From assembly GCA_012523135.1 (NCBI GenBank), contig JAAYJD010000058.1, positions 8,251-72,250 on the forward strand: DNA of 64,000 bases, read 5' to 3'. Positions 9,605 to 57,243 of the stretch are shown here, piece after piece; positions within the stretch are counted from its first letter, which is position 1, and every line of letters starts with the position of its first letter. Origin of the DNA: Clostridiaceae bacterium. Its GTDB lineage: Bacteria > Bacillota > Clostridia > Saccharofermentanales > UBA5734. The position numbers and the translations under genes are program-made. The notes under the pieces were generated by a model. It worked only from the letters and a program-made list of their open reading frames with translations, was not told the origin of the DNA and ran no database searches.

Positions 9605-9639
9605 AAAAAAACAGCCCTGTCCCCTGAGGGACAAGACTG
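9605..9639 (-). terminator. T-box-controlled intrinsic terminator
   Basis: On the minus strand: CAGUCUUGUCCC-UCAG-GGGACAGGGCUG, a 12-bp stem including G-U pairs, followed by seven U (9611-9605). Confidence 0.8.
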
Positions 9640-10498: not shown

Positions 10499-10527
10499 GA
10501 GCTGTGATAGACGGCCGGGAGACAGAT

Positions 10528-13775: not shown

Positions 13776-14033
13776 ATGATGGGTTTTGGTTATGGAACCG
13801 GTTGGATTTACATGCTCATCGGCGGCCTGCTGATCGTAGGCTTGATCGTTTTGATCGTTTTTTTGCTCGTCCGTGCGAACAGCGTTTCTGGCAAATCGGG
13901 TGCTACCGCTCCGCCTGATGCAAACCAAACGGATACCCAGCGCGCATTGGCGATATTAGCGGAGCGCTATGCCCGAGGCGAAATCAGCGATGAAGAATAT
14001 CAGCATAAAAAATCCGAAATCACACGATTGTGA
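13776..14033 (+). CDS. Small membrane protein with a C-terminal SHOCT domain
   Basis: Start chosen at the ATG at 13776 (GGAGGTG 7 nt upstream). One TM helix (WIYMLIGGLLIVGLIVLIVFLLV), then LAERYARGEISDEEYQHKKSEI. Confidence 0.75.
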   Translation: MMGFGYGTGWIYMLIGGLLIVGLIVLIVFLLVRANSVSGKSGATAPPDANQTDTQRALAILAERYARGEISDEEYQHKKSEITRL

Positions 14034-14079
14034 CTGATGGCCGCGCGCTTCCGTGATCGGTGATCAGGAGGTAAAAGCG

Positions 14080-17615: not shown

Positions 17616-17748
17616 AGCGCAGGCAGGGCTGCCACGAGCCAGTCTGCGTGTCCTAGGCAACGGCGGATGATGCCTGCCTGCGATACGATAAACATGGCGA
17701 AATGTTGCTCATTTACGCTTATGCTGGATATAAAAGGATTGATGATCG

Positions 17749-36524: not shown

Positions 36525-37316
36525 TCAGTCTTCGAGCAAGGCCCACATCTTGAGGCAGACCACTTCGACCGGCTCGGTCAGGCCGCACTCAAAGACGACA
36601 AAACCGGTGTAGCCGGTGTCGCGAATCGCCTTGAAGACGTTCTTGTAGTTGATCTCGCCGGTTCCCGGCTGCTTGCGCCCGGGTACGTCGCCGACATGGA
36701 TGTGGCCGATGTGCCGGATGTTGGCGCGGATGTTGTTGATCAGGTTGCCTTCGGTGATCTGCTGGTGGTAGACATCGTAGAGCACCTTGACCATCGGGCT
36801 GCCGACTTCCTCAATGACCGCCACCGACTCCGCCGTTGTGGTCAGGAAGTAGCCCATGTGGTTGACCAGGATGTTCAGCGGCTCGAGCACCAGCCGGATG
36901 TTGGCCGCTTCAGCCAGGGGCGCCGCAGCCTTGAGCGCCGCGACAACCTGGGCGTGCTGTTCGGCGCGCGCAACGCCGGCGATCTCGTTGCCGGTTGTCA
37001 CCACGATGTTCGTGCAGCCAAGCACCTGGGCGGCGGCGATCGTTTCCCGGATCGCCGTGACAAAGGCGTCTTTGGCGTCCGCGTGGACGATGCCGTGGGT
37101 GTTGGCGATCAGGGCCTGCTGTGCGGGGTCGCTGGCGTGAAACAGGATCGCCGAAACGGCGACGCCGGTGCGGTCGATTTCCCCGCGCAGGCGCTGCAGG
37201 TCGAGATGGGCCCAGTTGAGAATTTCGATGGCTTTGAAGCCTTGCTGGCGGGCCAGCTCGAGCTTGCCGTATTCCTCGCCGGAAAACCAGGAGTTATGGA
37301 CGGTTAATGTAAACAT
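36525..37316 (-). CDS. Sugar phosphate isomerase/epimerase (xylose-isomerase-like TIM barrel; hydroxypyruvate-isomerase-like)
   Basis: Start trimmed to 37316 (MFTLTVHNSWF; AAAGGAGG upstream). Contains the segments LVLEPLN and HIGHIHVGDVPGR. Confidence 0.85.
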   Translation of the reverse strand: MFTLTVHNSWFSGEEYGKLELARQQGFKAIEILNWAHLDLQRLRGEIDRTGVAVSAILFHASDPAQQALIANTHGIVHADAKDAFVTAIRETIAAAQVLGCTNIVVTTGNEIAGVARAEQHAQVVAALKAAAPLAEAANIRLVLEPLNILVNHMGYFLTTTAESVAVIEEVGSPMVKVLYDVYHQQITEGNLINNIRANIRHIGHIHVGDVPGRKQPGTGEINYKNVFKAIRDTGYTGFVVFECGLTEPVEVVCLKMWALLED

Positions 37317-37347
37317 GATCCGATGGCCTCCTTTGCTTTTTTCACAA

Positions 37348-38325
37348 TCAGTCCAGGACAATTTCCTTGCCGGTGGCGATCGACTCGTTGCAGGCCAGGG
37401 TCAGGGCCAGCGACTTGCAGGCGTCGGCATAGGGGGAGCGGATGATCGACGGGTTGTTGGTCTTGACGGCGTCGAGGAAGGTCCGGTCTTCGGTGACGCC
37501 TTGATCGATCTCCTTGCGGTGCTGTTCGACATAGCTGCCGGTGTCCAGCTCGACGGACTGGCGCAGGACGTAGCGGATGTCCGCGTCGGCACAGCGGATG
37601 TGCAGCCCGTTCTTGTTCGGCACGTTGCGGCCCAGGTAGCAGCCGGTGAACAGCGTGGCGATGACCTTATTCTTGAACGTGATGACCGCGGACGAATAAT
37701 CATGCAGGTCATAGCCCTCGCGCTGCACGATGCCGCGGGCCGCGGCGCAATAGACCCGTTCGGGTTCGCCGAACAGGTAGCGCAGCATGTCGAACAGATG
37801 GATGTTCTGCTCGACGATCTGGCCGCCGCTGGTCGCGTAGGTCGGCCACCAGTAAACGCCCGGAATACCGCCCAGCCAGGCACCGTCGACCAGGCCGACC
37901 TGGCGGCCCTTGAGAAACTCGCGGGTCTTTTCGATGACGTCGAGGTAGCGGTCCTGGAACCCTACGGCCGTGATGATGCCGGCTTTTGCGACGGCGTCCC
38001 GGATCTTCGTTGCCAGTTCCATGGAAAGGGCCATCGGTTTTTCGACCAGGAAGTGGATCTTGCGCTTGATCGCCTCGAACTCGATGGTGCCGTGCTGGTC
38101 CGGCGGTACGCAGATGTAGAGCACATCCGGTTTGGCCTCGTCCAGCATCTGGCAATAGGTGTCGAACACGGGCGCTCCGCCGACCTGGGCGGCCTTTTCA
38201 CGCGCCCGTTCCGGCCGGATGTCCATAAACCCGACATAGTCGACATCGTCGAACTGCACCAGGTGGCTGAGATGGAAATTGCAGATGCCGCCGCATCCGA
38301 CAAACGCTGCTTTTATCCGATCCAT
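37348..38325 (-). CDS. Gfo/Idh/MocA family oxidoreductase
   Basis: 325 aa. N-terminal Rossmann motif (IKAAFVGCGGI) and EKPMAL. RBS AAGGAGGG. Confidence 0.9.
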   Translation of the reverse strand: MDRIKAAFVGCGGICNFHLSHLVQFDDVDYVGFMDIRPERAREKAAQVGGAPVFDTYCQMLDEAKPDVLYICVPPDQHGTIEFEAIKRKIHFLVEKPMALSMELATKIRDAVAKAGIITAVGFQDRYLDVIEKTREFLKGRQVGLVDGAWLGGIPGVYWWPTYATSGGQIVEQNIHLFDMLRYLFGEPERVYCAAARGIVQREGYDLHDYSSAVITFKNKVIATLFTGCYLGRNVPNKNGLHIRCADADIRYVLRQSVELDTGSYVEQHRKEIDQGVTEDRTFLDAVKTNNPSIIRSPYADACKSLALTLACNESIATGKEIVLD

Positions 38326-38557: not shown

Positions 38558-39610
38558 ATGATTCGCGCAGGCATTCTTGGCTACGGATACATGGGCCATG
38601 TCCATACGCAGAAAATCGCCCCGATCGCCGGCATCGATGTCTTTTCCGTACACGATATCGACCCGGCAAAAAAAGCTGAAGCTGGTAAGGCCGGTTATTC
38701 TTTTTTTGCCGACCGCACCCTGTTCCTGGCCCAGGCGGACCTGGACCTGGTCATCATCGCCACGCCCAACCAGTTCCATCGCGACTACGCGATTGAAGCA
38801 CTGCGGGCCGGCAAGCACGTGATCTGCGAAAAGCCGGTCACGCTCAACACGGACGAGCTCGACGCGATCCTGGCCGCCGCCCGGGAAAGCGGAAAGATTT
38901 TCACGGTCCACCAGAACCGGCGCTGGGACACCGACTACCTGATGCTGCGTCAGATCATCGCGGACGGCACGCTCGGCAGACCGGTCGCGGTTGAATCGCG
39001 CGTCCTGGGCGAGCGCGGCATCGTCTTCGGCTGGCGGGCGGACCCGGCCTATGGCGGCGGCATGCTCTATGACTGGGGCGTCCACCAGGTCGACCAGATC
39101 CTGCAGCTCTTCCCCGACCGCAAGGTGACGCGCGTTTTCGCCCAGCTTTGGTCAGTCAACACGCTCCAGGTCGATGACTACTTCAAACTGGAGCTGGTCT
39201 TCAACGACCAATGCTCGGCCCACGTCGAGTGCGGCGTCTTCGCTCTTGAAAAACTGCCGCGCTGGTTTGTCTACGGCAGCAGCGGCACCCTGAAGATCGA
39301 CGACTTCAGCGCCAAATCCGGGCGCATCTCCAAGATCAACAACCAGTACACGGTCGAAGTGTCCGAGGGCGTCGATCCGGTTGTCGGCTCCAGCCGCACC
39401 ATGGCGCCCCTGCGCCCGGAACAGATCCAGCATGTTCCGCTGCCCGCCCCGGTCGACGCGGCCAACGCCTTCTATGAGAACATCGTCCTCGCCTGCCAGG
39501 ATCCGGACCAGCTCGCCGTCAAGCCGGACAGCGTGCGCCGCACCATGCAGGTGATCGACGCCGCGTTCGCGTCTGCCCGCGCGCGCCAGTCGATCGATGT
39601 CCTGATCTGA
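38558..39610 (+). CDS. Gfo/Idh/MocA family oxidoreductase
   Basis: 350 aa. Motifs IRAGILGYGYMG and CEKPVTL. RBS AGGAG. Confidence 0.9.
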   Translation: MIRAGILGYGYMGHVHTQKIAPIAGIDVFSVHDIDPAKKAEAGKAGYSFFADRTLFLAQADLDLVIIATPNQFHRDYAIEALRAGKHVICEKPVTLNTDELDAILAAARESGKIFTVHQNRRWDTDYLMLRQIIADGTLGRPVAVESRVLGERGIVFGWRADPAYGGGMLYDWGVHQVDQILQLFPDRKVTRVFAQLWSVNTLQVDDYFKLELVFNDQCSAHVECGVFALEKLPRWFVYGSSGTLKIDDFSAKSGRISKINNQYTVEVSEGVDPVVGSSRTMAPLRPEQIQHVPLPAPVDAANAFYENIVLACQDPDQLAVKPDSVRRTMQVIDAAFASARARQSIDVLI

Positions 39611-39635: not shown

Positions 39636-39676
39636 GCGGCCGCGATTCGTAACAGAATCGCGGCCGCTTTGATTTT
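39636..39676 (+). terminator. Intrinsic terminator between convergent genes
   Basis: Perfect 13-bp stem GCGGCCGCGATTC / GAATCGCGGCCGC with a 6-nt loop, followed by TTTGATTTT on the plus strand. Confidence 0.8.
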
Positions 39677-39706: not shown

Positions 39707-40531
39707 TCAGATATCGTGCAGATCCAGACCCCAGGGTTCGCGGCGCCGAAACGCGGTGGCGTAACGGTGTTCCAGCTTGCCGGAGGCATCCAGGTGGGCC
39801 AGGCAGGCCCGGCCGCAGGCAGCCGTCAGGCGGTTGGGCATCGCCTCGCTGTACGTCGTGTCCGGGAAGGCGCCGTTCGGGCAATAGAGACATTTCTGCC
39901 GGTTGACTTCGGCAACTGTGCGCGTGACACCGCAAATGGTAACATCAGTCGTTTTGCTGGTATCGATGGCACCCAGCGGGCAGGCGGCGGCACATTTGGC
40001 GCATTGCTCGCGGTCACAGACCGTGCCCGTGAAAACCGGATCCGGTTCAATTTCCAGGTCCGTGATGATCAGGCCCAGTGCCTGGCGGGTGCCGAACTGG
40101 GGTGTCAGAAGCAGCCCGCAGTAGCCGATTTCGCCCAGACCGCAGGCGACCATCGCGTAGCTGAGATCCGGGTAGACATTGGGCGCGACTGAACCGGTGC
40201 GGAACACGACACCTTCCGGCCAGCGCTCGGCGGCCATCGGGCTCGACGGCACGGCGACCCCGCCCTCATCTTCCAGGAAACGGGCCAGCGTGTACATGTA
40301 GTGGGCTCCGATCAGGCGGCCGGCGCGGGTCCACAGCGTGCCCTCCTCGGTACCGCGGAACACGCCGCGCGGAATCTCCTGTGCGCACAGGACGATCGAG
40401 CGGGCCTGGGGGAAGATCGAGAGCGGATTGCGCTGCGGTTCAACATCACGGAAACGCTCGGCCGGCGCGACGCCGACGGCGTCGATGCCGCTTCTCTTGG
40501 CGTATGCCAGCAGCTCTTGCTTACTCAACAT
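39707..40531 (-). CDS. QueG/reductive-dehalogenase-superfamily-like Fe-S protein, paralogue 1 (274 aa)
   Basis: The ORF-track entry 39707..40780 is trimmed to the ATG at 40531 (MLSKQELLAYAKRSGIDAVGVAP; AAAGGGGG upstream). The core is ACGLGEIGYCGLLLTPQFGTRQALGLIITDLEIEPDP, then CDREQCAKCAAACP, then CLYCP ... CGRAC. Confidence 0.75.
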   Translation of the reverse strand: MLSKQELLAYAKRSGIDAVGVAPAERFRDVEPQRNPLSIFPQARSIVLCAQEIPRGVFRGTEEGTLWTRAGRLIGAHYMYTLARFLEDEGGVAVPSSPMAAERWPEGVVFRTGSVAPNVYPDLSYAMVACGLGEIGYCGLLLTPQFGTRQALGLIITDLEIEPDPVFTGTVCDREQCAKCAAACPLGAIDTSKTTDVTICGVTRTVAEVNRQKCLYCPNGAFPDTTYSEAMPNRLTAACGRACLAHLDASGKLEHRYATAFRRREPWGLDLHDI

Positions 40532-41534
40532 GGTTCTCGCCCCCTTTAGCGCTGTCGTCCTTCTGCAGGTAATAGGCCCGCTTGTCCTTGCCGATCCGGC
40601 CGGTCTGCTTGAGATGCTCGTAGCAGGACTGGATGCAGCCGTACGCGCCGCAGATGCTGCCGGGTCGGCCGCCCTGGCCCAGTTCATCGAAGCCGTTGGC
40701 CACCGTCGACAGGTAACGGGAGCGCTGGGACAGCGCACGGCCAAAGTTGATCGCTTCGAACCAGCCCATGGTCTGTTCATCGATGTTCATCTTGAAACCG
40801 GGCATGTCCTTCTTGACAAAAGGCGAGGCCAGTTCGTTGAGGCCCCAGTGCGTCAATTTGCACTTGCCCAGGTCGACGTCGCCCCACTCGAAGACGCGGT
40901 CCTCGATCTTGACCGACACTTTTTTATGTTTGCTGTACAGGGCATGGCCGGGGCAGTCGCGGACGCAGTGCAGGCAGCGGTCGCAGATGCTGCGCTGCAG
41001 CAGCGGATCCGGTTCCAGCTCGGCGTCGGTCAGGAAGATCTCGAAACGCTGGCGCGGTCCGAACTCGGGGGTCAGGAACACCTTGGACCAGCCCAGCTCG
41101 CCCAGGCCGGCGGCCGCAGCCGTGATGCGCATGTGCAAAACGACATTGGACGGCATTTTGCCTTCGGCGACCGGCGGACGGTGCGGCGGGGCCTCGTGGG
41201 GCAGAAACGTATGGCCGCCAGGTGAAACGACGGTCTCGTAACCGTGCGATTCCACGAACTGGCGCGTCATGCGCATGGCATTGCCGAGCGGGCCGTAGAT
41301 GCCGGTACCGTAGCCGTAGATCCAGTAGGTCGACCAGTCAGCATTTTCGCGGACGCCCTTATACGAGCCTTCCAGGATACGCCCGGCCAGCACGACGACC
41401 GATTTCGTCTTCGGATAGATGTTAAGCGGATGCGTCTCGGGCGGCGCCTGCATCAGGCGCGAAAGCGGCGCGATGCCGACCAGGTCGGCGCCCGCTTCCC
41501 GGGCCACTTTTTTGACCATTTCACTGGTTAACAT
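40521..41534 (-). CDS. QueG/reductive-dehalogenase-superfamily-like Fe-S protein, paralogue 2 (337 aa, divergent)
   Basis: Start chosen at 41534 (MLTSEMVKKVAREAGADLVGIAP; GGGGGA upstream). The core is AAGLGELGWSKVFLTPEFGPRQRFEIFLTDAELEPDP, then CDRCLHCVRDCP, then a late CGAYGCIQSC. Confidence 0.75.
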   Translation of the reverse strand: MLTSEMVKKVAREAGADLVGIAPLSRLMQAPPETHPLNIYPKTKSVVVLAGRILEGSYKGVRENADWSTYWIYGYGTGIYGPLGNAMRMTRQFVESHGYETVVSPGGHTFLPHEAPPHRPPVAEGKMPSNVVLHMRITAAAAGLGELGWSKVFLTPEFGPRQRFEIFLTDAELEPDPLLQRSICDRCLHCVRDCPGHALYSKHKKVSVKIEDRVFEWGDVDLGKCKLTHWGLNELASPFVKKDMPGFKMNIDEQTMGWFEAINFGRALSQRSRYLSTVANGFDELGQGGRPGSICGAYGCIQSCYEHLKQTGRIGKDKRAYYLQKDDSAKGGENHVE

Positions 41535-41548
41535 ATCTCGTGATCCCC

Positions 41549-42448
41549 CTATCTTTCCCACGTTTCAAGTCGCCACGGTTCGCCGTCCCGGAACGGGTTG
41601 ACATACTTTTGCGTCAGGCGGCCGGTCTTTTCCAGGTGGTTCAGGCAAGTCCGGCTGCAGACAGCGGTGGCAATGTTGGGCACGTTCCGGCGGGTCAGAG
41701 CGGTCGACGTTTCGACGATCTTGGGCTGGTTGCCCGAGAACTCGACCATCAGCTCCTCCTGGCCGACCTTGTTGATGAAGTCCGGTGCCGCGCCGTTAGG
41801 GCAGAGGCGGCACAGGTTGTAGTTGATCTCGGCCAGGACGGTCTGGCGGCCGCAGATGTCAAGCGTGACCGTCTTGTCCGGGTTGATCGAGTGGGCCGGG
41901 CACACGGCGATGCATTCGCGGCAGGCCAGGCCGTCGCAGAGCGTGCCGGCATAAATGGGGTCCGGTTCCAGCTCGAGCTCGGTCAGGATCACGCCCAGGG
42001 TGTTGCGGTTGCCATACTGAGGCGTCAGCAATTGCCCGAGCAGGCTGATTTCACCTAACCCGGCGGCCACGGCCGCGTATTCCAGGTTGATGGTCACGTT
42101 GTACATGGGGCGGTCCGGGGCAACCGGGCGGCTGCGCGGGGCAACCTTGGGGAAGTGGGCCAGGTAGGGCACGGCCTCGAAATGGGTCTGCTGCTCGATG
42201 GTGCGGGCCATATCGAGCACCAGGCGCTGGTCGAGGTACTTGCTGGCGAAACTCCAGAGCGTCCCCTCTTCCACACCGCGGTAATTGCCGCGCGGAATGT
42301 CCGCCCCGATGACAATGACCGAACGGACCTCCGGCAGGATGGAGGCCGGATGGACATTTTGGGGGAGTCCGTCGAAGCGTTCAGCGGACGCGACGCCAAA
42401 CAGGGTGAGACCGATGCTGCGCGCATAGTCCCTCAGCATTTCCTTCAT
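41549..42448 (-). CDS. QueG/reductive-dehalogenase-superfamily-like Fe-S protein, paralogue 3 (299 aa)
   Basis: Start chosen at 42448 (MKEMLRDYARSIGLTLFGVAS; GAGGTG upstream). The core is AAGLGEISLLGQLLTPQYGNRNTLGVILTELELEPDP, then CDGLACRECIAVCP, then CRLCP ... CSRTC. It is closest to paralogue 1. Confidence 0.75.
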   Translation of the reverse strand: MKEMLRDYARSIGLTLFGVASAERFDGLPQNVHPASILPEVRSVIVIGADIPRGNYRGVEEGTLWSFASKYLDQRLVLDMARTIEQQTHFEAVPYLAHFPKVAPRSRPVAPDRPMYNVTINLEYAAVAAGLGEISLLGQLLTPQYGNRNTLGVILTELELEPDPIYAGTLCDGLACRECIAVCPAHSINPDKTVTLDICGRQTVLAEINYNLCRLCPNGAAPDFINKVGQEELMVEFSGNQPKIVETSTALTRRNVPNIATAVCSRTCLNHLEKTGRLTQKYVNPFRDGEPWRLETWER

Positions 42449-42529
42449 GTTATCACCTCGAATTGAATCGGTGCGCCCGGCGCGCCCGCCGGGTGCGGCA
42501 GTCTTGTTCACATCCTAAAGATATGCTAT

Positions 42530-42584
42530 GATCTTGCTGTTTAAAAGCCTTGTTATTGCCGATTTATAGCTTGATCTTGCTGTC
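42530..42584. promoter_or_regulatory. Candidate AraC operator: direct repeat of TGATCTTGCTGT, two copies 43 bp apart
   Basis: An identical 12-mer occurs at 42530-42541 and 42573-42584. Both lie in the 170-bp divergent region between the AraC gene and the QueG-like operon. Confidence 0.45.
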
Positions 42585-42618
42585 TTGAGCCAAGCACAAG
42601 GTCAAAGAAAGAGGGTAC

Positions 42619-43572
42619 ATGCACGACAGCGTCAATCGGGACCTTGCGGCACCGTCCGGCGACGGCCGCCGTTTTCACCTCGCCGCCAGTCCATCGGTCG
42701 AACGGCCTGTTCCAAGCCTGCCTGACCTGGATTTGCCGCTGGATCACCTGTCGCCCACCATCGCGGTTATGTCGCTGCACAACTCCCGTAACCGCAAGGG
42801 GCAGCTGTCTTTGGACCGTTACACCCAGCCTAGGGCCGTTCATCTCTATGAAATCGAATTCTTCACCCAAACCGGCGGCGTGGCCGTTGTCGATGACTGC
42901 CAGTACCCGATCTCCAGGGGCGATGTCCGGTTTCACCGGCCCGGCCAGATCGTCTGGAGTCATGTCCACTACGAATGCTACGCCATGCGACTTGCCCTCG
43001 ACGGCCGGCTGCCGGAACCCGGCGCGTATCAGCCGCTTTTTCACAATACATACCTAGACGCGATTCCCTGCTTCATGTCCGTGTCGTCACCTGAATCCTA
43101 CGCGCGGCTGCTCGATGACATGCTGCGGTTGTGGATCAACCCGCAGCCCGGCTCTGAACTGCTGCTCAAGAGCAAGACCCTTGAGCTGATCTGCCTGCTG
43201 TACAAGGACGCTGTCCAGCTGAACGTGCTGGGCGGCTCGCAGCGGCTTACGGACACTGTGACACGGGCCATGGACTACATTGCGGCGCATTTTTGCGAAC
43301 CCGTCCGGCTGACGGACATCGCCGCGGCGGTCAATCTCAGCCCGTATCACTTTCACCGCCAGTTCACCCGGGCTGTCACCATGACGCCCCTGGCCTACCT
43401 GACCCGGGTACGCATCGAGCAAGCCCGCGAGCTGCTGCTGACCACCCGTATGCCGGTCAGTGAAATTGCCCCGGCTTGCGGGTTTGAAAGCCCGTCTTAT
43501 TTTACCCGGGTTTTCCGCGGTCTGACCGGCCAGACCCCCGGCATGTTCCGCCGCCACCGCCAGCTGTTTTGA
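42619..43572 (+). CDS. AraC family transcriptional regulator (cupin sensor plus dual HTH)
   Basis: 317 aa. Cupin-like N-terminal half, and a C-terminal AraC HTH (LSPYHFHRQFTRAVTMTPLAYLTRVRIEQARELL ... SPSYFTRVFRGLTGQTP). Confidence 0.9.
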   Translation: MHDSVNRDLAAPSGDGRRFHLAASPSVERPVPSLPDLDLPLDHLSPTIAVMSLHNSRNRKGQLSLDRYTQPRAVHLYEIEFFTQTGGVAVVDDCQYPISRGDVRFHRPGQIVWSHVHYECYAMRLALDGRLPEPGAYQPLFHNTYLDAIPCFMSVSSPESYARLLDDMLRLWINPQPGSELLLKSKTLELICLLYKDAVQLNVLGGSQRLTDTVTRAMDYIAAHFCEPVRLTDIAAAVNLSPYHFHRQFTRAVTMTPLAYLTRVRIEQARELLLTTRMPVSEIAPACGFESPSYFTRVFRGLTGQTPGMFRRHRQLF

Positions 43573-48093: not shown

Positions 48094-48122
48094 ATTATAG
48101 ACTGAAGCGCCCGGTTTGTCAG
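48094..48122 (-). promoter_or_regulatory. Sigma-A-type promoter of the MBL/MscS genes
   Basis: On the minus strand: CTGACA (48122-48117), 17 nt, TATAAT (48099-48094). It overlaps the GH32 stop codon. Confidence 0.55.
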
Positions 48123-49483
48123 GTCAAAAGCGTCAGGGCGGCGGCGCCTTCGACTTCGAGCCGGGTATAGGGCCTGGCCGGATAAACCGCCGACGTCACA
48201 GCCAGCAGACCGGAATCGGCAAACCAGTCGCAGATGCTGACGTCAAAATAGAACACCATGTCATAGGGGCCCGACGCCAGACGGGGCACACGCAGCTGTT
48301 GAAAAAGCGGCCGGTCGTACCAGTCGGAGAAGCGTAACGAGGAGGCCTGGCTGCGGTCGAGGAAAAAGGTGCCTGGATCCGACAGGCCAAAGCACAGCCG
48401 CTCGCCCGCGTCGTTGGCCAGGCTGACCGAAACAGGCCCCTCCCCGGTCAGCCGGATCCCGAAGGACTCGCCCGGTAAGGGCAGCGAGCGATCTGCCTCG
48501 CCTGACTCCAGCCTGGCGGCTGGCTTCAGCAGCAGGTCCAGAGCAGGGCAGGGCCGGCCGGCCAGACGCAGCCCGGCCGGTGTCTGACGCAGGGACAGGA
48601 TGCGCGGCAGCGTCATGGCACCGCGATAAACACCGGTCGGCGTCAGTCCGGCATACGTCCAGTTGCTCGCCCAGCCGACCAGGATACGCTCCGGGGCGTT
48701 GTCGAACGTGATCGCCGCGTAATCGTCAAAACCCGGGTCGACCAGCCGCGTCTCCCCTGCCGGATCCGCCATGAACGATACGCCGTCAAACGAACCGGAA
48801 AAATACTGCGTACAGGAGCCGCCGTCTTCTTTGGCCCGCCCCATGCTGACCACCAGCACCCACTTGAGCTGGCCGTCCGGTGCCGGCAGCGCGAAAAAAT
48901 CCGGGCATTCCCAGACACCAGGCAGATTCCCGGCCGGACCGAAAGCGCTGGTCCGGCACCAGCGCTTCAGGTCGTCGGAACGGTAGAAATCGATGTGGTC
49001 GCCGGATGCCACCACGCAGCTCCAGCAGCTGAGAACGGGATTCCAGAACGGCTTGGGGTCACGAAAATCCCGAAGACCGCCGTTGGGAATGACCGGATTC
49101 TTGTCATAGGGATGAAAGTGGATGTAGTCGGTGCTCCAGGCGATCCCCTGCTGCTGGACGCGACCGCTCTGGCAGTACATCAGGACCAGGGCCGGGTTTG
49201 CGCCAGGCCCGGAAAAACCCGCCGTGTTCGCCTTGTCCAGGACGGCGCCGCCCGAAAAGGCCATGCCGTGCGCATCCGGCGCCAGGGCGATCGGCTGGTG
49301 CTGCCAGTGCAGCAGGTCGCGGCTGGTCGCGTGGGCCCAGTGCATAGGGCCCCAGTCGGTTCCGTCGGGGTGATGCTGGGCAAACAGGTGGTAGGTGTCG
49401 CCGACCTGGCAAAGGCCGTTGGGGTCGTTGATCCAGCCGGCAGGCGGCGTGTAGTGCCAGCGGGGACGGAAGTTACGCACCAT
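48119..49483 (-). CDS. Glycoside hydrolase family 32 (beta-fructofuranosidase / sucrose-6-phosphate hydrolase-like), cytoplasmic
   Basis: 454 aa. Motifs WINDPNG, FRDP and WECPDFF. No signal peptide. RBS GAGGAGG. The start overlaps the DUF1848 gene by 11 nt. Confidence 0.9.
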   Translation of the reverse strand: MVRNFRPRWHYTPPAGWINDPNGLCQVGDTYHLFAQHHPDGTDWGPMHWAHATSRDLLHWQHQPIALAPDAHGMAFSGGAVLDKANTAGFSGPGANPALVLMYCQSGRVQQQGIAWSTDYIHFHPYDKNPVIPNGGLRDFRDPKPFWNPVLSCWSCVVASGDHIDFYRSDDLKRWCRTSAFGPAGNLPGVWECPDFFALPAPDGQLKWVLVVSMGRAKEDGGSCTQYFSGSFDGVSFMADPAGETRLVDPGFDDYAAITFDNAPERILVGWASNWTYAGLTPTGVYRGAMTLPRILSLRQTPAGLRLAGRPCPALDLLLKPAARLESGEADRSLPLPGESFGIRLTGEGPVSVSLANDAGERLCFGLSDPGTFFLDRSQASSLRFSDWYDRPLFQQLRVPRLASGPYDMVFYFDVSICDWFADSGLLAVTSAVYPARPYTRLEVEGAAALTLLT

Positions 49484-51682: not shown

Positions 51683-51710
51683 AGTCTAGCGGTTCGGGCC
51701 CGAAATGCAA
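51683..51710 (-). promoter_or_regulatory. Possible promoter of the PHP-DUF1848-GH32 operon
   Basis: On the minus strand: TTGCAT (51710-51705), 16 nt, TAGACT (51688-51683). The spacer contains the palindrome TTCGGGCCCGAA. Confidence 0.35.
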
Positions 51711-51732
51711 CCGCAATCCGGCCGTCTGCCGG

Positions 51733-51761
51733 TTTTCATTCCAGGAGGAGGCGGGTATAAT
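51733..51761 (+). promoter_or_regulatory. Candidate promoter of the CE7 esterase gene
   Basis: TTTTCA (51733-51738), 17 nt, TATAAT (51756-51761). Confidence 0.5.
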
Positions 51762-51788
51762 GGGAAAAAAGTCTCTGGAGGTACCCTT

Positions 51789-52751
51789 ATGCCGTTGATT
51801 GACATGCCGCTGGAAGCCTTGCGCCAGTACCAGGGCAAAAATCCGCGTCCGGACGATTTCGACCGCTACTGGACCGACGCCCTGGCCGAAATGCGGGCCG
51901 TCGACCCGAATCTCGAATTGATTCCGGCCAGTTTCCAGGCGCCCGGCGTCGCCTGTTATGACCTCTATTTCACCGGTGTGCGCAATGCCCGCCTGCACGC
52001 CAAGTATGTCCGTCCGCTGGGCCGGACCGAGCCGCATCCGGCGGTCGTCATCTTTCATGGCTACAGCGGCAGCAGCGGTTCCTGGCTGGACAAGCTGCCC
52101 TATGCCGCCATGGGCTTTTCTGTCGCCGCGCTGGACTGCCGCGGCCAGGGCGGCCAGTCGCAGGAGACCGGCGGGGTCCTGGGCACCACCTTTCGCGGCC
52201 ACATCGTGCGCGGTCTCGACGACAAACCGGAGAATCTGCTGATGCGCCACAATTTCCTGGATACGGCCCAGCTGGCCGGACTCGTCATGGACATGCCTGA
52301 GGTCGATGCCGACCGGGTGGCCGCCATGGGCGGATCCCAGGGCGGCGGCCTGACCGTCGCCTGCGCCGCGCTGGAGCCGCGCATCGCCCGGCTGGCGCCC
52401 CGCTGCCCCTTCCTGAGCGACTACCGCCGCGTCTGGGAAATGGACCTGGCCAAGGACGCCTACGAGGAACTGCGCACCTTCTTCCGCCAGTTCGACCCGA
52501 CCCACGCCCGCGAGGCGGAGATTTTCACCCGGCTGGGCTACATCGACATCGCCCACCTGGCGCCCCGCATCCAGGGCCAGGTGCTCTGGGCCGCCGGCCT
52601 GATGGACACGATCTGTCCGCCCTCGACCCAGTTTGCCGCCTACAATAAGATCACCTCGCCCAAGGACATGATCCTGTATCCCGACTACGGGCATGAGAGC
52701 TACCCCGGTTTCGACGACCAGGCCTTCATGTTTTTAGGCGAACTGCTCTGA
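51789..52751 (+). CDS. Carbohydrate esterase family 7 (acetyl xylan esterase / cephalosporin-C deacetylase)
   Basis: Trimmed to the ATG at 51789 (MPLIDMPLEALRQYQG; GGAGGT upstream). Motifs RGQGG, GGSQGG (nucleophile Ser) and YGHE. Confidence 0.9.
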   Translation: MPLIDMPLEALRQYQGKNPRPDDFDRYWTDALAEMRAVDPNLELIPASFQAPGVACYDLYFTGVRNARLHAKYVRPLGRTEPHPAVVIFHGYSGSSGSWLDKLPYAAMGFSVAALDCRGQGGQSQETGGVLGTTFRGHIVRGLDDKPENLLMRHNFLDTAQLAGLVMDMPEVDADRVAAMGGSQGGGLTVACAALEPRIARLAPRCPFLSDYRRVWEMDLAKDAYEELRTFFRQFDPTHAREAEIFTRLGYIDIAHLAPRIQGQVLWAAGLMDTICPPSTQFAAYNKITSPKDMILYPDYGHESYPGFDDQAFMFLGELL

Positions 52752-52756: not shown

Positions 52757-53638
52757 TCAGGGCGCGTCTGCCAGGACTGAGCGCGCATATTCGGTCATCG
52801 TCATCTCCTGGCGGCTGCGGAACAGGCGCGAAAAATAGTGCGGATTGTCGTAGCCCAGGCGCAGGGCGATCTGGGTGAAGTTCAGTTCGCCCTCGGCGAC
52901 CATGCGCCTGGCTTCGCTGATCTTGAGCTCGATCAGCTGGTCGATGACGCTGGCGCCGGTCGCCGCCTTGAACGCCTTTTTGACCTGGGCTACGCTGCAA
53001 CCCATGGCCGCGGCGACCTCGGACAGCGTCAGGCGGTCCTGGACATGGTCTTCGAGAAAGGCCTGGATGCGTTCGGCCAGCGCCCGGCTGGTGCCGGGCG
53101 GGGCCGTGTTGAGCGCCCGTTGCTGGATTTTGACGGCATGGCCCTGCCGGTACAGCCGGATCAGCATCTGCTCGAGGCTGGTGCGGACCAGCTGCCCGGA
53201 GCCAAAGGCAGTCCCCGGAAAATCCGGCGGTTCGTCCTCCGCCGGCAGCAGGCTGCCGTCGACCTCGCGCAGGGCGGCTTGCAGGCCGGCGCGCGCCGCG
53301 GCATCGAGCAGCAGGATCTTGTGCGTGAAATACGACATGCACGGGCTCTCACTGGCAAAGGCGCAGACAATGAAGTTGGCTTTTTCCCGGCTGCAGGCCT
53401 GCACGGCGTGGAACTCGCCCGGACAATGGAAAGCCAGCTCGCCGGCCCGCAGCTGGTACTGCTGGCCGCCCGCCGTTATCAGCATCTGGCCTTTGTCGAT
53501 GTAGATGAATTCCCAGAAATCATGCGTCTCGCCGGCGAAGCTGAAATTGCTGGGGCTCCGGAAATAGAACAGGCTGATCAAGCGGGTGATCGACAAGACA
53601 TTTTCCAGGATATGGCCGTAATAATCGATGTTCGCCAT
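52757..53638 (-). CDS. AraC family transcriptional regulator (cupin plus HTH)
   Basis: Trimmed to the ATG at 53638 (MANIDYYGHILE; GGAGGTG upstream). Cupin-like half (HDFWEFIYIDKG ... FHAV) and a C-terminal AraC HTH (NPHYFSRLFRSRQEMTMTEY). Confidence 0.9.
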   Translation of the reverse strand: MANIDYYGHILENVLSITRLISLFYFRSPSNFSFAGETHDFWEFIYIDKGQMLITAGGQQYQLRAGELAFHCPGEFHAVQACSREKANFIVCAFASESPCMSYFTHKILLLDAAARAGLQAALREVDGSLLPAEDEPPDFPGTAFGSGQLVRTSLEQMLIRLYRQGHAVKIQQRALNTAPPGTSRALAERIQAFLEDHVQDRLTLSEVAAAMGCSVAQVKKAFKAATGASVIDQLIELKISEARRMVAEGELNFTQIALRLGYDNPHYFSRLFRSRQEMTMTEYARSVLADAP

Positions 53639-53811
53639 CGGGCACCTCCGCCTGCGCCGCGCGCCAAGGCCAGTATCCTGCACTATCGGTCACCTGTCAA
53701 GAATCAATCAGTTTCCGTAGCCGATCGTGCACAAACGAGAGCCCTTTGTTTATTTTTCCGCGCCTGAAAAATGATATGATGAAAACAAGAGAAGTGACCT
53801 GGAGGTGCATT

Positions 53812-54669
53812 ATGAAAAAAGGCATCAGCATCTGGTCCTTTACCGGCCAACCCCTGGAGACATGCTTTCAACTGGCGCGCAAGGCCGGCTTTGATGGTGT
53901 CGAAGTCGCCCTGGACGAGCAAGGGCCGATCCACCTGGCATCGACCCGCCAGGATATGGCGGCCGTCCGGAACGCGGCCGACCGGCAAGGCGTCGACGTG
54001 ACCAGCGTCGCCAGCGGCCTCTACTGGACCTACTCCCTGACCGCGGACGAACCGGATGTCCGGGCCAAGGCCCGCTCGATCGTGGTGCAGCAGCTGCGGG
54101 TGGCTTCCTGGCTGGGCTGCGACACGATTCTGGTTCTGCCGGGCAGCGTGACCTGCGGGTTCGGCCCCCAGGCGCCAGTCGTTCCCTACGATGTCGCCTA
54201 TGACCGTTCCCTGGAGGCGCTGCACGCGCTGGCCCCGGTCGCCGCCGACCTCGGCGTCGCCATCGGCCTGGAAAACGTCTGGAACAACTTTCTGCTCTCC
54301 CCCCTGGAAATGCGCAGCCTGATCGACGCGATCGACAGCCCGGCGGTCGGCGCCTATTTCGATGTCGGCAATGTGCTGGCCTTCGGTTATCCGGAGCAGT
54401 GGATCCGTATCCTCGGGCCGCGCATCCGCAAGGTGCACATCAAGGACTTCCGCCGCGGCGTCGGCGGCTTGAACGGTTTCGTCGACCTGCTGGCCGGCGA
54501 CGTCGATTTCCCGGCGGTCATGGCCGCGCTCGCCGCCGTAGGCTACGACGACTATCTGACCGCCGAGATGTCGCCCTACCGGCTGTATCCCGAGACCATC
54601 CTCGTTAATACGTCATCGGCCATGGACCGGATCCTGGGCAGGACCGGCCTGGCTGACAAGGAGGTGTGA
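53812..54669 (+). CDS. Sugar phosphate isomerase/epimerase (xylose-isomerase-like TIM barrel)
   Basis: Trimmed to the ATG at 53812 (MKKGISIWSF; GGAGGTG upstream). Contains the segments GFDGVEV, IGLENVWN and YFDVGNV. Confidence 0.88.
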   Translation: MKKGISIWSFTGQPLETCFQLARKAGFDGVEVALDEQGPIHLASTRQDMAAVRNAADRQGVDVTSVASGLYWTYSLTADEPDVRAKARSIVVQQLRVASWLGCDTILVLPGSVTCGFGPQAPVVPYDVAYDRSLEALHALAPVAADLGVAIGLENVWNNFLLSPLEMRSLIDAIDSPAVGAYFDVGNVLAFGYPEQWIRILGPRIRKVHIKDFRRGVGGLNGFVDLLAGDVDFPAVMAALAAVGYDDYLTAEMSPYRLYPETILVNTSSAMDRILGRTGLADKEV

Positions 54670-54672
54670 TCC

Positions 54673-55704
54673 ATGCTGCATGTTGGGATGATCGGCTTTG
54701 GCGGCATCGCCCAGGCCCATCGGGCCGCTTACGAGAAGCTGGCCAGAGAATGTGCGCCCGTCAAGCTCCTGGCGGCCTGCGACATCGACCCGGAGCAATT
54801 CAAGCGGCGGATCGAGATCAACCTGGGGGCCGCGGATGTCGACCCCGCCTCGAAGCTCGCCTGCTACACCGATCTCGAGGAGATGCTCGCGCGCGTGCCG
54901 TTTGACCTGATCGACATCTGCCTGCCGACGCCCTTGCACGCCCCCTACGCGATCGACATGCTGCGGCGCGGCTACCACGTGCTGAGCGAAAAGCCGATGG
55001 CCCGGACGTCCGGTCTGTGCCAGGCGATGGTGGACGCAGCTTCCAAGGCCCGCGGCCAGCTCATGATCGGGCAATGCCTGCGCTTCTTCCCCCAGTACGA
55101 GTACCTGCGCGACCTGGTGCAGCAGGAAACCTACGGCAAGGCCATCAGCGCTGTCTTCGAACGGACCAGCGGCCCGCCGCGCTGGGCCTGGGAAAACTGG
55201 TTCATGGACTATGAACGCTCAGGCGGCTGCCTTTTGGACATGCATATTCACGATCTGGACATGGCCCGCGCCCTGTTCGGCGAGCCGGAAGCGGTTTCCT
55301 GCGTCACCCAGGATGTCCAGTCGCGCATGGATGTCGTCCACAGCACCCTCTATTACGGCGACGGCAAGCCGGTCTTCGCCCTGGGCGACTGGTCGATGGA
55401 AAGCTGCCCGTTCCAGCATGGCTACCGGATCGGCTTCGAAAAAGCCACCGTGATCTTTGACGGCAGCAAGGTCACCGTTTATCCGCGCGGCGGCGACAGC
55501 TTCGATGCCGACCTGCCGTACGAGCAGGGCGGCATCGAGCGCGAGATCCGCTACTTCACCGGCCTTTTGGAATCCGGCCGGCCAAACGAGATCAACCCGC
55601 CGCAGAGCGCCCTGCGCTCGGTCCTGCTGGCAGAGGCGCTGCGGGACAGCGCGCTGGCGGGCGGGACACGCGTCACGCTTAAAAACCAGGAGGTGAGCAG
55701 ATGA
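54673..55704 (+). CDS. Gfo/Idh/MocA family oxidoreductase
   Basis: 343 aa. Motifs VGMIGFGGIA and SEKPMA. Confidence 0.9.
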   Translation: MLHVGMIGFGGIAQAHRAAYEKLARECAPVKLLAACDIDPEQFKRRIEINLGAADVDPASKLACYTDLEEMLARVPFDLIDICLPTPLHAPYAIDMLRRGYHVLSEKPMARTSGLCQAMVDAASKARGQLMIGQCLRFFPQYEYLRDLVQQETYGKAISAVFERTSGPPRWAWENWFMDYERSGGCLLDMHIHDLDMARALFGEPEAVSCVTQDVQSRMDVVHSTLYYGDGKPVFALGDWSMESCPFQHGYRIGFEKATVIFDGSKVTVYPRGGDSFDADLPYEQGGIEREIRYFTGLLESGRPNEINPPQSALRSVLLAEALRDSALAGGTRVTLKNQEVSR

Positions 55705-56525
55705 AAATCGGATCTATTATCGGCTATCGTCCCGGCACGGACCTGGCGGCCGCCTTCGGTCAGGCGCGCCAGCTCGGCCTGGACAGCTGTCAGCTGAACA
55801 TCTGGGACAGCACACTCTTCAGCGAGGACCAGACCCAGGTCGTCCGGCAGGCCCAGGAGAAAACCGGGCTTGAAATTTCCGCCTTGTGGGCCGGCTGGAG
55901 CGGGCCGAAGGAATGGAACTTCACCGGCGGGCCGGCAACGCTCGGCCTCGTGCCCCCTGCCTACCGCGGCCAGCGTCTCCAGGAGCTGCTGGCGGCCAGC
56001 GCCTTCGCGGTTCACATCGGCGTCACGGATATCGTGACCCACGTCGGTTTTCTGCCGGAAAACCCGGACGACCCCAACTACTCGGGCGTCGTTTGCGCGC
56101 TGCGCCACCTGGCCCAGGTCATGCAGGGGCGCGGGCAGTTTTTCTTGTTTGAAACCGGCCAGGAAACACCGGTCACCCTGCTGCGCACCATGCAGGATAT
56201 CGGCACCGCCAATCTCGGTGTCAATTTCGACATGGCCAACTTGCTGCTGTACGGCAAGGCGAATCCGGCGGACGCACTGGACATCCTGGGTGCTTATGTG
56301 CGCGGGGTTCACTGCAAAGACGGCGAGTACCCGACCGACGGCCGGCGTCTCGGCCATGAAAAGGCGCTGGGCCAGGGTCGCGTCGACCTGGCGCAGATCA
56401 TCCGTAAGCTCAAAGAGATCAACTACCAGGGTCACTTGACCATCGAGCGGGAGATTTCCGGACCAGAGCAAATCCGGGACATCCAGGCGGCCCGCGACCT
56501 GCTGCTGCAGCTGCAGGGGGCCTGA
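55701..56525 (+). CDS. Sugar phosphate isomerase/epimerase (xylose-isomerase-like TIM barrel)
   Basis: 274 aa with an ATGA overlap with the Gfo gene. Contains the segments FLFETGQE, NFDMANLL and VHCKDG. Confidence 0.85.
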   Translation: MKIGSIIGYRPGTDLAAAFGQARQLGLDSCQLNIWDSTLFSEDQTQVVRQAQEKTGLEISALWAGWSGPKEWNFTGGPATLGLVPPAYRGQRLQELLAASAFAVHIGVTDIVTHVGFLPENPDDPNYSGVVCALRHLAQVMQGRGQFFLFETGQETPVTLLRTMQDIGTANLGVNFDMANLLLYGKANPADALDILGAYVRGVHCKDGEYPTDGRRLGHEKALGQGRVDLAQIIRKLKEINYQGHLTIEREISGPEQIRDIQAARDLLLQLQGA

Positions 56526-56538
56526 CAGGGAGGTTGCC

Positions 56539-57243
56539 ATGCGCGTACTCGCAATCGGGTGTCATCCCGATGATCTGGAAATAGGCTGTTTCGGAACATT
56601 GGCCCGCTGCGTGCAGCGCGGCGATACCGTCACCATCTGCCACATCGCCAACGGCAGCCGCGGCCATGTGCTGATCGACCCGGTCAGCCTGCGTGAAATC
56701 CGGCTGGAAGAGGCCCGGGAAGCCGGGCGGCGGATCGGGGCCCAGGTCCTGACGCTGGACGTTCCGGACCTGGAAGTCAACAGCCGGGACCCGGAACAGA
56801 TCAAGGCCCTGACCGAAGTCGTCCGTAAGGTCAAGCCGGACCTGGTCATCACCCACAGCCCGCAGGACTACATGCAGGATCACCTGGAGGTCCAGAAACT
56901 GGCCTTCGACGCCAGTTTTTCCGCCAGCATCTGGAACCAGCAGGACCGGGCGGCCGGCGTCGCCGCCATCACGCCGCTGTATTACATGGATACGCTGGCC
57001 GGCGTCAATTTTCTGCCCGGCGAATATGTCGATATCTCGGATGTCATCGACATCAAGCTGGAAGCGCTCGGCTGCCACCACAGCCAGATCGACTGGATGC
57101 GGGATCACGATAAGATCGATTTTATCGATTTCGTCGCGACCTGCTCCAAGTTCCGCGGCCTGCAGTGCGGTGTCCGCTATGCCGAAGGCTTCCAGAGCGC
57201 GGCGGTCTGGCCGCGCCTGCCGACGAGCCGGCTGCTGCCCTGA
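56539..57243 (+). CDS. PIG-L/LmbE family N-acetyl-sugar deacetylase
   Basis: 234 aa. N-terminus [20 protein letters not shown], followed by a later [10 protein letters not shown] segment. Confidence 0.88.

Follow-up and report, generated by a model that had tools for sequence, protein, structure and literature searches.

A three-gene operon of a Clostridiaceae genome specifies RdhA/QueG-fold iron-sulfur proteins of an undescribed, likely heteromeric family distinct from QueG and classical RdhA

To our knowledge, only two types of reaction are known for the class III cobalamin/iron-sulfur (Fe-S) enzymes, the reduction of organohalides and the reduction of epoxyqueuosine, and the complete known set of class III cobalamin folds comprises QueG, PceA, NpRdhA and CblC. 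NpRdhA is monomeric owing to a vestigial cobalamin-binding domain. In QueG, Arg141 lies under the corrin ring, the HEAT-like tRNA-binding domain (Leu257-Leu385 in B. subtilis) rests on the Cbl and Fd inserts, and two clusters are bound in a crossover manner, the distal one by the CxxCxxC residues and the last Cys, the proximal one by the CP-Cys and three later Cys (PMC5175355). In PceA, Arg305 is catalytic, and a conserved active-site Tyr is situated above the corrin (Tyr246 in PceA, Tyr101 in S. thermophilus QueG) (PMC4646009). In this work, we analyzed a DNA stretch of 64,000 nucleotides (hereafter, the window) from the metagenome-assembled genome (MAG) of a "Clostridiaceae bacterium" (assembly GCA_012523135.1, contig JAAYJD010000058.1, positions 8,251 to 72,250 of the forward strand), in which three tandem paralogous genes encode the proteins NLO35284-NLO35286. 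The genes and their products are referred to as gC, gB and gA in the order of transcription, and collectively as the trio. The results allow us to conclude that the trio represents a new variant among the class III cobalamin/Fe-S enzymes, covered by no curated model and probably heteromeric, which is neither QueG nor a classical RdhA.

The three genes lie on the minus strand and encode proteins of 299 (gC), 337 (gB) and 274 (gA) amino acids; in this the list of open reading frames (ORFs) agrees with the ATG starts proposed in a first-pass annotation, which had been made from the sequence alone. The 14-nt gap between gC and gB (41535-41548) and the 11-nt overlap of gB with gA (40521-40531) likewise agree with the ORF coordinates. 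Each ATG is preceded by a Shine-Dalgarno-like site (GAGGTG for gC, GGGGGA for gB and AGGGGG for gA), and the start residues are the same as in the homologues. The NCBI label of all three products is hypothetical protein, and the JGI labels are ferredoxin, pyruvate:ferredoxin oxidoreductase (PFOR) delta subunit or QueG.

Outside the ferredoxin models, the only NCBIfam matches of the trio proteins were the reductive dehalogenase (RDH) model TIGR02486, with 40-46 bits against a cutoff of 160 (~3.5-fold below), and the QueG model TIGR00276, with 24-31 bits against a cutoff of 200 (~7-fold below), both alignments covering only the core (residues ~125-200). The Pfam scan gave only sub-threshold Fer4 matches, and neither the Dehalogenase domain model nor the QueG_DUF1730 model matched any of the three. 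The PDB sequence matches outside ferredoxins were confined to PceA-type dehalogenases, QueG and NpRdhA, the PceA-type chains being the best with the family profile (73 bits). The AlphaFold2 (AF2) model of gC, built with 69 homologues (pLDDT 86.5, pTM 0.86), consists of an RdhA/QueG-type N-domain (residues ~1-165) and a ferredoxin-like domain with eight Cys, and its Foldseek comparison with solved structures retrieved QueG (E 1.9e-8), PceA, NpRdhA and then MMACHC/CblC (E ~5e-4), with a probability of 1.00. The nitroreductase-like corrinoid-type fold seen in the gC model is assigned to gB and gA by their sequence homology to gC, and in all three proteins the ferredoxin-like domain with eight Cys directly follows the N-domain. 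The sub-cutoff NCBIfam matches, the PDB sequence matches and the fold matches of the gC model bear out the relation to QueG and RdhA that the first-pass annotation had drawn from the motif layout, and we are highly confident that the trio proteins have the RdhA/QueG-superfamily fold and carry two [4Fe-4S] clusters each.

The hallmarks of the two described groups are, at the same time, lacking. No RR motif of the twin-arginine translocation (Tat) signal RRxFLK is present in the first 60 residues of gC, gB or gA, no transmembrane helix is predicted in any of them (the maximal 19-residue Kyte-Doolittle mean is 1.0-1.4), and near the trio there is no small hydrophobic ORF with coding-type composition that might be rdhB. 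The proteins stop right after the last Cys motif, and the gC model has no helical bundle past residue 274, so that, at 274-337 amino acids, they show no HEAT-like domain of the QueG type. Thus, as had been claimed, the products are not QueG and not respiratory RdhA, and the scores far below the model cutoffs agree with this; none of the three is an orthologous QueG. The QueG active-site motif Asp-Tyr-His, which goes together with Asp134 (B. subtilis; Asp130 in S. thermophilus), is absent from the trio proteins, and a conserved Asn/Asp is found at or beside the Asp130/Asp134 position. Nor are they of the NpRdhA type: each is a single module, and no flavin or NAD domain was detected in the Pfam and NCBIfam scans.

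It might be argued that the family comprises divergent QueG-type enzymes that reduce epoxyqueuosine or, in salvage, free epoxy-queuine or its nucleoside. QueG is indeed the top Foldseek match by E-value, many family members are labelled epoxyqueuosine reductase by JGI, and the association with importers described below could suit the salvage of a precursor. However, besides the low TIGR00276 scores and the absence of the Asp-Tyr-His motif, of the HEAT-like tRNA-binding domain and of the Cbl and Fd inserts, the AraC/IclR regulation and the neighbouring genes for glycoside hydrolases (GH28, GH20-like) and Gfo/Idh/MocA proteins are unlike those of queuosine genes, and neither a preQ1 nor any other riboswitch was found at these loci. 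We therefore give this explanation hardly any credence.

Pairwise BLASTP comparison of the trio proteins gave 39% identity for gA and gC (E 1e-70), 28% for gB and gC (E 6e-35) and 31% for gB and gA (E 3e-31), which puts their paralogy far beyond chance. Together with the per-clade alignment, these values uphold the earlier statement that the first and third paralogues are mutually close and that the middle one has diverged and carries inserted sequence. All three translations contain the core AAGLGE...LTPxFGxR...TDxELEPDP and both Cys sets that had been described: the first reads C-x4-C-x2-C-x3-CP in gC and gA and C-x2-C-x2-C-x3-CP in gB, and the second reads C-x2-CP...C-x3-C in gC and gA and C...C-x4-C-x3-C in gB. 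The N-terminal pattern proposed for all three proved slightly inexact, as gC has GLTLFGVA in place of G.D.VG and gB ends in RL instead of RF.

The motif Cys are C171, C176, C179, C183, C213, C216, C264 and C268 in gC, and C172, C177, C180, C184, C214, C217, C239 and C243 in gA. The middle protein, gB, has exactly eight Cys, all within the motifs (C184, C187, C190, C194, C225, C295, C300 and C304). Conservation of the Cys across homologues, on which the first-pass annotation had made its proposal depend, was found throughout the 69-155 homologues compared: among 69 diverse homologues, the gC residues C171, C183, C213, C264 and C268 are invariant, and C176/C179 are kept in at least 90%, while per-clade conservation in 155 family proteins makes the position of the fourth ligand of the second cluster clade-specific. 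The eight-Cys pattern fits the crossover ligand scheme of QueG (PMC5175355), by which the proximal cluster of gB would be held by C194, C225, C295 and C300, and the distal one by C184, C187, C190 and C304.

Apart from the Cys motifs, AAGLGE, FGPRQR and T...D...EPDP, the family signature includes RGxxRGxEEGT, located after the second strand. Judging from the order of the secondary-structure elements, this motif may sit where QueG has the Asp-Tyr-His active-site loop. In gB it is degenerate (EGSYKGVRENA), and the gB orthologues have K for R.

When 155 family proteins from 81 loci (numbered with the prefix L) were clustered by pairwise identity with average linkage, a long clade of ~347 aa and a short clade of ~298 aa emerged. 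In two-gene loci the short gene comes first (45 of 48) and the long gene second (48 of 49), and the paired genes usually overlap or lie a few bases apart; the short subunits of these paired loci always score best to gA. The order of the window trio, short-long-short, recurs in every locus that has a gB-type long subunit (at least 55% identity) with both flanks visible, the exceptions being L005 and L006, where a short gene is paired with a gB-type one; long subunits 37-48% identical to gB are nearly always found in two-gene loci. This order is seen in Clostridia, Christensenellales and Lentisphaerales genomes (L001, L004, L011, L031 and L034) and in unrelated metagenome contigs (L086-L089, L091-L096, L099, L100 and L102), as well as in L104, a metagenome contig whose end cuts the third gene. 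In other words, the synteny of the trio, which the first-pass annotation had singled out as a point on which its proposal could fail, extends to other genomes and to many unrelated metagenome contigs.

About a quarter of the loci contain a single family gene of ~345 aa, which means that a lone subunit can suffice. This feature, along with the full eight-Cys set of each trio protein and the frequent tandem multiplication of rdhA in dehalogenating organisms, would suit three independent paralogous enzymes or isoenzymes rather than one complex. Against such independence stand the clade order, which is constant from phylum to phylum (the short gene precedes the long one in 45-48 of ~49 pairs), the tight spacing or overlap of the genes and the loss of residues in a complementary manner between the clades. 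Moreover, the singletons form a subclade of the long clade with its own conserved 340-aa partner gene, and fusions of three modules are predicted as one compact body. We regard independent enzymes as improbable.

Among the best 150 representative clusters, 42 are fusions of this kind (~750-800 aa; P0122, P0127 and P0134 are examples), in which two full modules flank a third copy of the N-domain devoid of Fe-S. In the AF2 model of P0127 (pLDDT 92.3, pTM 0.94), the chain folds into one compact body, in which the secondary-structure pattern of the N-domain occurs three times. Among PDB entries the model matches NpRdhA best, and QueG/PceA/CblC-type matches accompany it. No reductase domain was found in the fused relatives, which are a sister family of the trio family. 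Their loop motifs are unlike those of the window family: the consensus is HHPDA..ELGGE for the first module and PPAE..GPY for the last one. With TIGR02486, P0122 reaches 124 bits, below the cutoff. Taken together, the fixed clade order across phyla, the conservation of the trio in unrelated metagenomes, the compact model of the three-module fusion and the complementary loss of features between the subunits strengthen the earlier idea of a heteromeric enzyme, and we consider it likely that the trio proteins form a heteromer.

Residues of the trio were mapped by hidden Markov model (HMM) alignments to QueG (5d08) and PceA (4uqu), combined with the published roles and per-clade conservation. At the position of QueG Arg141 (alignment column 196), Arg occupies 100% of the long clade and 96% of the single members, vs. 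Glu in 71% of the gC/gA clade and Asp in 39% of the paired-short clade; the trio itself has R136 in gB, E123 in gC and S124 in gA. At the position of PceA Arg305 (column 235), Arg is found in 93-100% of the long and single clades and in 96% of the paired-short subunits, and the trio has R163 in gB, T150 in gC and A151 in gA. The Tyr-rich loop of gB (Y..YGY, with Tyr in 96-100% of the long and single clades) is deleted in gC and gA. In a weak HMM alignment to PceA 202-272, with two conserved strands as anchors, its segment Y70-Y80 spans the position of PceA Tyr246, and the loop may tentatively be taken as a candidate equivalent of the Tyr above the corrin. The Asn/Asp at the PceA Asn272 position is conserved in all clades (N130 in gB, N117 in gC and N118 in gA). 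Across taxa, gB is the most conserved subunit, with ~60% identity to its Lentisphaerae/Christensenellales orthologues vs. ~37-50% for the short subunits. The three subunits are thus probably not equivalent, only gB of the trio keeping the active-site-type residues. Because it alone in the trio has the Arg141-type Arg, the Arg305-type Arg and the Tyr loop, and because it is the most conserved, gB is the candidate for the catalytic subunit, an assignment that, judged from such alignments, we hold to be finely balanced.

The genes surrounding the family, called with a filter comparing GC3 to GC1, point to regulated uptake. Within the first 80 loci, AraC/IclR regulators are the sole broadly conserved neighbours: in 30 of these loci there is a divergently oriented orthologous AraC gene, at a median distance of 153 bp, and AraC and IclR genes account for 23 and 12 of 132 immediate neighbours, respectively. 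At trio-type loci, the commonest neighbours are SBP_bac_5 (7 of 61) and BPD_transp_1 (6 of 61). In L087 and L099, the substrate-binding protein (SBP) gene is the immediate upstream neighbour and has the same orientation; in L100 and L104, it is part of a co-oriented run of genes that precedes the family genes; Opp-type transporter genes are present in L005 and L006, SBP_bac_1 in L004, and in L089 the CUT1-type/sugar-type ATP-binding cassette (ABC) genes are followed by the trio and then by a GH28 gene. Since AraC/IclR regulators are the sole broadly conserved neighbours and ABC importers are the commonest ones at trio-type loci, the system appears to be inducible and to act on an imported solute. 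Other neighbours are sporadic (GH78, GH20-like/DUF4838 with CBM9, GH28, GH127, sulfatase, URO-D, Gfo/Idh/MocA and xylose-isomerase-like TIM barrels). A Gfo/Idh/MocA gene is found within 6 kb in 9 of 80 loci and adjoins the family genes in L091, which is not a clear enrichment for genes that are abundant in these phyla. We judged these sporadic neighbours insufficient to name a substrate, and an imported glycan-related substrate is conceivable but rather doubtful.

The same data bear on the idea of a cytoplasmic catabolic (non-respiratory) reductive dehalogenase of natural organohalides. For all three proteins the RDH model beats the QueG model, the PceA-type chains lead the PDB sequence matches, and gB possesses the Arg aligned to Arg305, an Asn at the Asn272 position and Tyr candidates; surveys also describe cytosolic RdhA-like proteins of 300-1000 aa. 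Yet the scores stay well under the RDH cutoff, RGxxRGxEEGT is not present in RdhA, the hosts are fermentative glycan degraders of guts and digesters, and, instead of the CprK/MarR regulators or reductase domains that typify rdh loci, the surroundings hold genes for AraC/IclR regulators, ABC importers and glycoside hydrolases. A dehalogenase of this kind is, in our opinion, a poor candidate. Two further roles were considered and rejected. A corrinoid methyltransferase/activase role, suggested by URO-D genes near three loci, is at odds with URO-D being non-adjacent and absent from most loci, and with a fold that is RdhA-like and not RamA/RACo-like. Corrinoid salvage, to which the fold kinship with CblC and the importers could have pointed, found no support, as neither a cobalamin riboswitch nor Btu-type genes were found at these loci.

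The homology and fold, the conserved Cys, the clades of subunits, the synteny, the fusions and the gene neighbourhoods follow directly from the present data; the corrinoid cofactor, gB as the sole catalytic subunit, the stoichiometry, the electron donor and the type of reaction are inferred. The trio would constitute a soluble cytoplasmic multi-subunit reductase from an undescribed RdhA/QueG/CblC-fold Fe-S family, with gB catalytic and a corrinoid probable, a combined reading to which we assign about even weight; for the corrinoid by itself, the balance tips slightly in favour. Each subunit would contribute an N-domain of ~165 residues with a nitroreductase-like alpha/beta fold, of the type that binds base-off corrinoid in QueG/RdhA, and a ferredoxin-like domain whose eight Cys would bind two [4Fe-4S] clusters with the QueG-type crossover. 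Devoid of active-site residues but equipped with all the clusters and RGxxRGxEEGT, gC and gA may serve as electron-entry/wiring modules and may complete the obligate dimer-type interface of the nitroreductase fold, like the vestigial domain of NpRdhA, in a 1:1:1 gC:gB:gA assembly mirroring the three-module fusions. A generic low-potential donor, either ferredoxin or flavodoxin, would supply electrons, which would reach the cofactor of gB by way of the clusters; this cofactor would reductively cleave a C-O or C-X bond of a small imported molecule with Tyr/Arg-assisted protonation. The divergent AraC regulator would turn the operon on in response to the imported compound.

Several points weigh against this scheme. 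The fold similarity of gC is moderate (TM score ~0.45 to QueG and PceA), and the nitroreductase fold also binds flavins. The equivalence of the Tyr residues relies on a 1.4-bit HMM segment and the counting of anchors, with Y75 and Y80 of gB as ambiguous alternatives. If RGxxRGxEEGT is catalytic, gB may not be the active subunit, or the roles may be shared. No conserved electron-donor gene was found near the family loci, and no B12 transport or biosynthesis genes or riboswitch were seen there. The neighbour functions are heterogeneous (Opp-type and sugar-type ABC, GH20-like, GH28, GH78, Gfo/Idh/MocA), so that the gene neighbourhood does not define the substrate class, which may differ between clades.

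Part of this evidence would fit proteins that share the fold but hold no corrinoid, that is, oxidoreductases with Fe-S clusters, with or without a flavin, or modules for electron transfer, whose N-domain contains flavin mononucleotide (FMN) or is empty. Flavins are the primary ligands of the nitroreductase fold, a fused relative has FMN nitroreductases among its weak fold matches (ranks 47-50), and the short subunits are devoid of the Arg located beneath the corrin in QueG; the failure of the Pfam Dehalogenase and QueG_DUF1730 models on all three proteins and the lack of B12-related genes or riboswitches near the loci point in the same direction. On the other hand, the nearest sequence and structure relatives are exclusively the corrinoid proteins QueG, PceA and NpRdhA, then CblC, with no flavin enzymes among them, the AGLGE...FGPR...T..D core directly before the dicluster domain is the class III signature arrangement, and the Arg at the QueG Arg141 position is present in 100% of the long clade. 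A corrinoid-free function is accordingly an unlikely outcome, if one that deserves serious consideration, and the corrinoid-dependent reductase is the reading we retain. We tentatively propose, with less conviction than for the reductase as such, that the family represents a third functional branch of class III B12 enzymes, a heterotrimeric or heterodimeric corrinoid enzyme with multiple [4Fe-4S] clusters, whose single catalytic subunit would be served by paralogous subunits for electron wiring. In Bathyarchaeia and in anaerobic bacteria of guts, digesters and sediments, it would catalyze reductive C-O/C-X cleavage of a metabolite that is imported and probably stems from glycans or plants.

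The family is large. A profile search of 1.84 billion representatives yielded 444 clusters at E<=1e-30 and 2331 at E<=1e-10 (counted at 50% identity), and a scan of one genome per GTDB species with the narrow family alignment A2 confirmed relatives at a minimum of 247 places. Most hosts are Clostridia from guts and digesters (Oscillospiraceae, Lachnospiraceae and Christensenellales), with further members in Lentisphaerota, Armatimonadota, Verrucomicrobiota/Kiritimatiellia, Brocadiaceae, Spirochaetales, Prolixibacteraceae and Bathyarchaeia. The only labels given to the proteins are "hypothetical", "ferredoxin" and, mistakenly, "QueG"; they fall outside every Pfam and NCBIfam model, and neither a published description of the family nor a characterized function, which would have refuted the first-pass proposal, was found in the annotations and literature searched.

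The trio operon represents a large family that differs from both known class III reaction types and has a distinctive, probably heteromeric architecture. Where its genes are counted as queG or rdhA, surveys overestimate queuosine synthesis and the potential for dehalogenation. The family is common in gut and digester Clostridia and in glycan-degrading Lentisphaerota, Armatimonadota and Verrucomicrobiota, where it is tied to dedicated regulators and importers, and the identification of its substrate would add new B12 chemistry, uncover another B12-dependent step of anaerobic catabolism and set right a widespread misannotation. With dedicated AraC/IclR regulators and a host in culture, Oligosphaera ethanolica DSM 24202 (Lentisphaerota), the question is open to direct experiment. 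In this organism (NZ_JAUSVL010000001.1, L049:6305-9985), an IclR gene is followed by a short-short-long trio, whose gene order is unlike that of the window trio and which probably arose independently.

Two other gene products were observed next to family members. A conserved ~340-aa protein is encoded directly downstream of single-type members and, in some loci, together with the trio (L087:11822-12856, L054:8957-10030, L056:9011-10033, L099:6102-7124, L104:6100-7134 and 7 more loci). It has the invariants G41/R42 (consensus PSGR), NxxCYG, SVNM, NSGC...C...HDN and RPE, and most members end in CxxxCxxCxYC. No Pfam, NCBIfam or PDB match was obtained for it other than a non-significant one to 5d88, a "collagenase-family" protease of the U32 type (E 0.97). 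The protein defines a second uncharacterized family, functionally linked to the trio family. In a Bathyarchaeia contig (JAWBSK010000007.1, L084:961-3345), a family gene is followed by a gene for a 794-aa flavoprotein with FAD_binding_5, Fer4_20, Pyr_redox_2 and CO_deh_flav_C domains; it was seen once and is a candidate dedicated electron donor.

The features of the window locus are collected in Table 1. The GC-rich hairpin separates the trio from the convergent gene, so that the trio is a self-contained three-gene operon; with this hairpin on one side and the 170-bp intergenic region to the divergent AraC gene on the other, the unit comprises the regulator and the three-gene operon. The intergenic region is, by eye, AT-richer than its surroundings, and a simple scan of it gave no consensus sigma-70 site. 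The AraC protein is likely a substrate-responsive regulator of the trio. The tie of the convergent Gfo/Idh/MocA gene to the trio is weak, although such genes recur beside family members in several phyla.

Table 1. Coordinates of the trio operon, its flanking features and the sequence elements discussed in the text (window positions).
Feature	Position	Strand	Basis
gC, first gene, "short" subunit, 299 aa	41549-42448	-	ORF list, Shine-Dalgarno-like site, clade assignment
gB, second gene, "long" subunit, putative catalytic, 337 aa	40521-41534	-	ORF list, Shine-Dalgarno-like site
gA, third gene, "short" subunit, 274 aa	39707-40531	-	ORF list, Shine-Dalgarno-like site
Hairpin, GC-rich, 13-bp stem, probable bidirectional terminator of the trio operon	39636-39667	.	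Location between convergent genes
Presumed promoter/operator region, 170 bp, gC to divergent AraC gene	42449-42618	.	Sequence read
AraC-family regulator, 317 aa, divergent from the trio	42619-43572	+	Pfam HTH_18/HTH_AraC
Gfo/Idh/MocA oxidoreductase, convergent on the trio	38558-39610	+	Pfam
RGNYRGVEEGT, gC residues 53-63, instance of RGxxRGxEEGT	42260-42292	-	Near-invariant alignment columns
gB Arg136, six residues before AGLG, aligned to B. subtilis QueG Arg141	41127-41129	-	HMM alignment to 5d08, offset from Cys188
gB R161-Q-R163 in FGPRQR; R163 aligned to PceA Arg305	41046-41054	-	Alignments to 4uqu (ITPEFGPNVRL)
gB Tyr-rich loop Y70-W-I-Y73-G-Y75-G-T-G-I-Y80	41295-41327	-	Per-clade conservation

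Near the trio, a TIM-barrel/Gfo gene pair with a 14-nt overlap is located at 36525-38325, and at 52757-57243, in a second AraC-regulated cluster of the sugar type, an AraC gene (cupin/AraC_binding) is divergent from genes for a TIM barrel, a Gfo/Idh/MocA protein, another TIM barrel and a PIG-L deacetylase. These clusters resemble catabolic modules of the 3-keto-sugar or C-glycoside type; genes for GH32 (48119-49483) and AXE1 (51705-52751) are found near the second one. Elsewhere in the window, a T-box leader (RF00230, 100.7 bits) at 9624-9853 of the minus strand lies upstream of a minus-strand gene run that starts with an ABC_sub_bind substrate-binding protein (8497-9471) and looks like an amino-acid-responsive transporter. 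At 10504-12456 (plus strand), outside a ribosomal context, a 650-aa EF-G-family GTPase with all five EF-G domains is encoded, which could be a ribosomal-protection (Tet-like) protein or an EF-G2 paralogue. A GC dip at 14001-18000 (0.53-0.56 vs. ~0.62 elsewhere) holds the gene of a multicopper oxidase with three domains (16191-17615), an enzyme that one would not expect in a MAG of anaerobic Clostridia, and has a fused MsrA-MsrB gene (17749-18909) at its edge; the dip may be a horizontally acquired oxidative-stress or copper island. An 828-aa fusion of pyridine-nucleotide-disulfide oxidoreductase, Rhodanese, TusA and DsrE-like domains (58359-60845, minus strand) resembles a CoA-disulfide/persulfide-reductase sulfur-trafficking protein.

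The trio system may finally be set beside the four described ones. One of them is MMACHC/CblC (3som), which has the nitroreductase-like corrinoid-binding fold and gives a weaker fold match; in contrast to the trio proteins, it has no ferredoxin domain and no Fe-S clusters, performs different chemistry and is mainly eukaryotic. With QueG (5d6s, 5d08), the trio has in common a cytoplasmic location, an N-domain of similar size and of the nitroreductase-like corrinoid type directly before a 2x[4Fe-4S] ferredoxin-like domain, the AG(L/I)G...TP(E)(F/Y)G...T....EPD core, the eight Cys in the crossover pattern and, in gB, the Arg at the Arg141 position. Unlike the trio, QueG possesses the HEAT-like domain, the Cbl/Fd inserts and the Asp-Tyr-His/Asp134 motif, and it is monomeric, whereas the trio system is multi-subunit, AraC/IclR-regulated and encoded beside importers and glycan genes. 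RdhA/PceA (4uqu, 8q4h) are the best relatives by core sequence, and depend, as the trio would, on a dimer-type interface of the nitroreductase fold; the long subunit has an Arg aligned to PceA Arg305, an Asn/Asp at the Asn272 position and candidates for the active-site Tyr. The trio proteins differ from them in having neither a Tat signal nor an RdhB anchor, in being ~150 aa shorter than PceA, without its N-terminal and substrate-channel elements, in having heteromeric paralogue partners each with its own clusters, and in their fermentative glycan-degrading hosts. NpRdhA/BhbA (4ras, 6zxu), with a sequence identity of only ~15%, is likewise cytoplasmic; in it, as would be the case in the trio, an extra non-catalytic copy of the cobalamin-binding domain replaces the homodimer partner, and it is the closest solved structure to the fused three-module relatives. 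Unlike NpRdhA, the trio has no fused NAD(P)H/flavin reductase domain, and its extra modules are separate polypeptides with full Fe-S domains.

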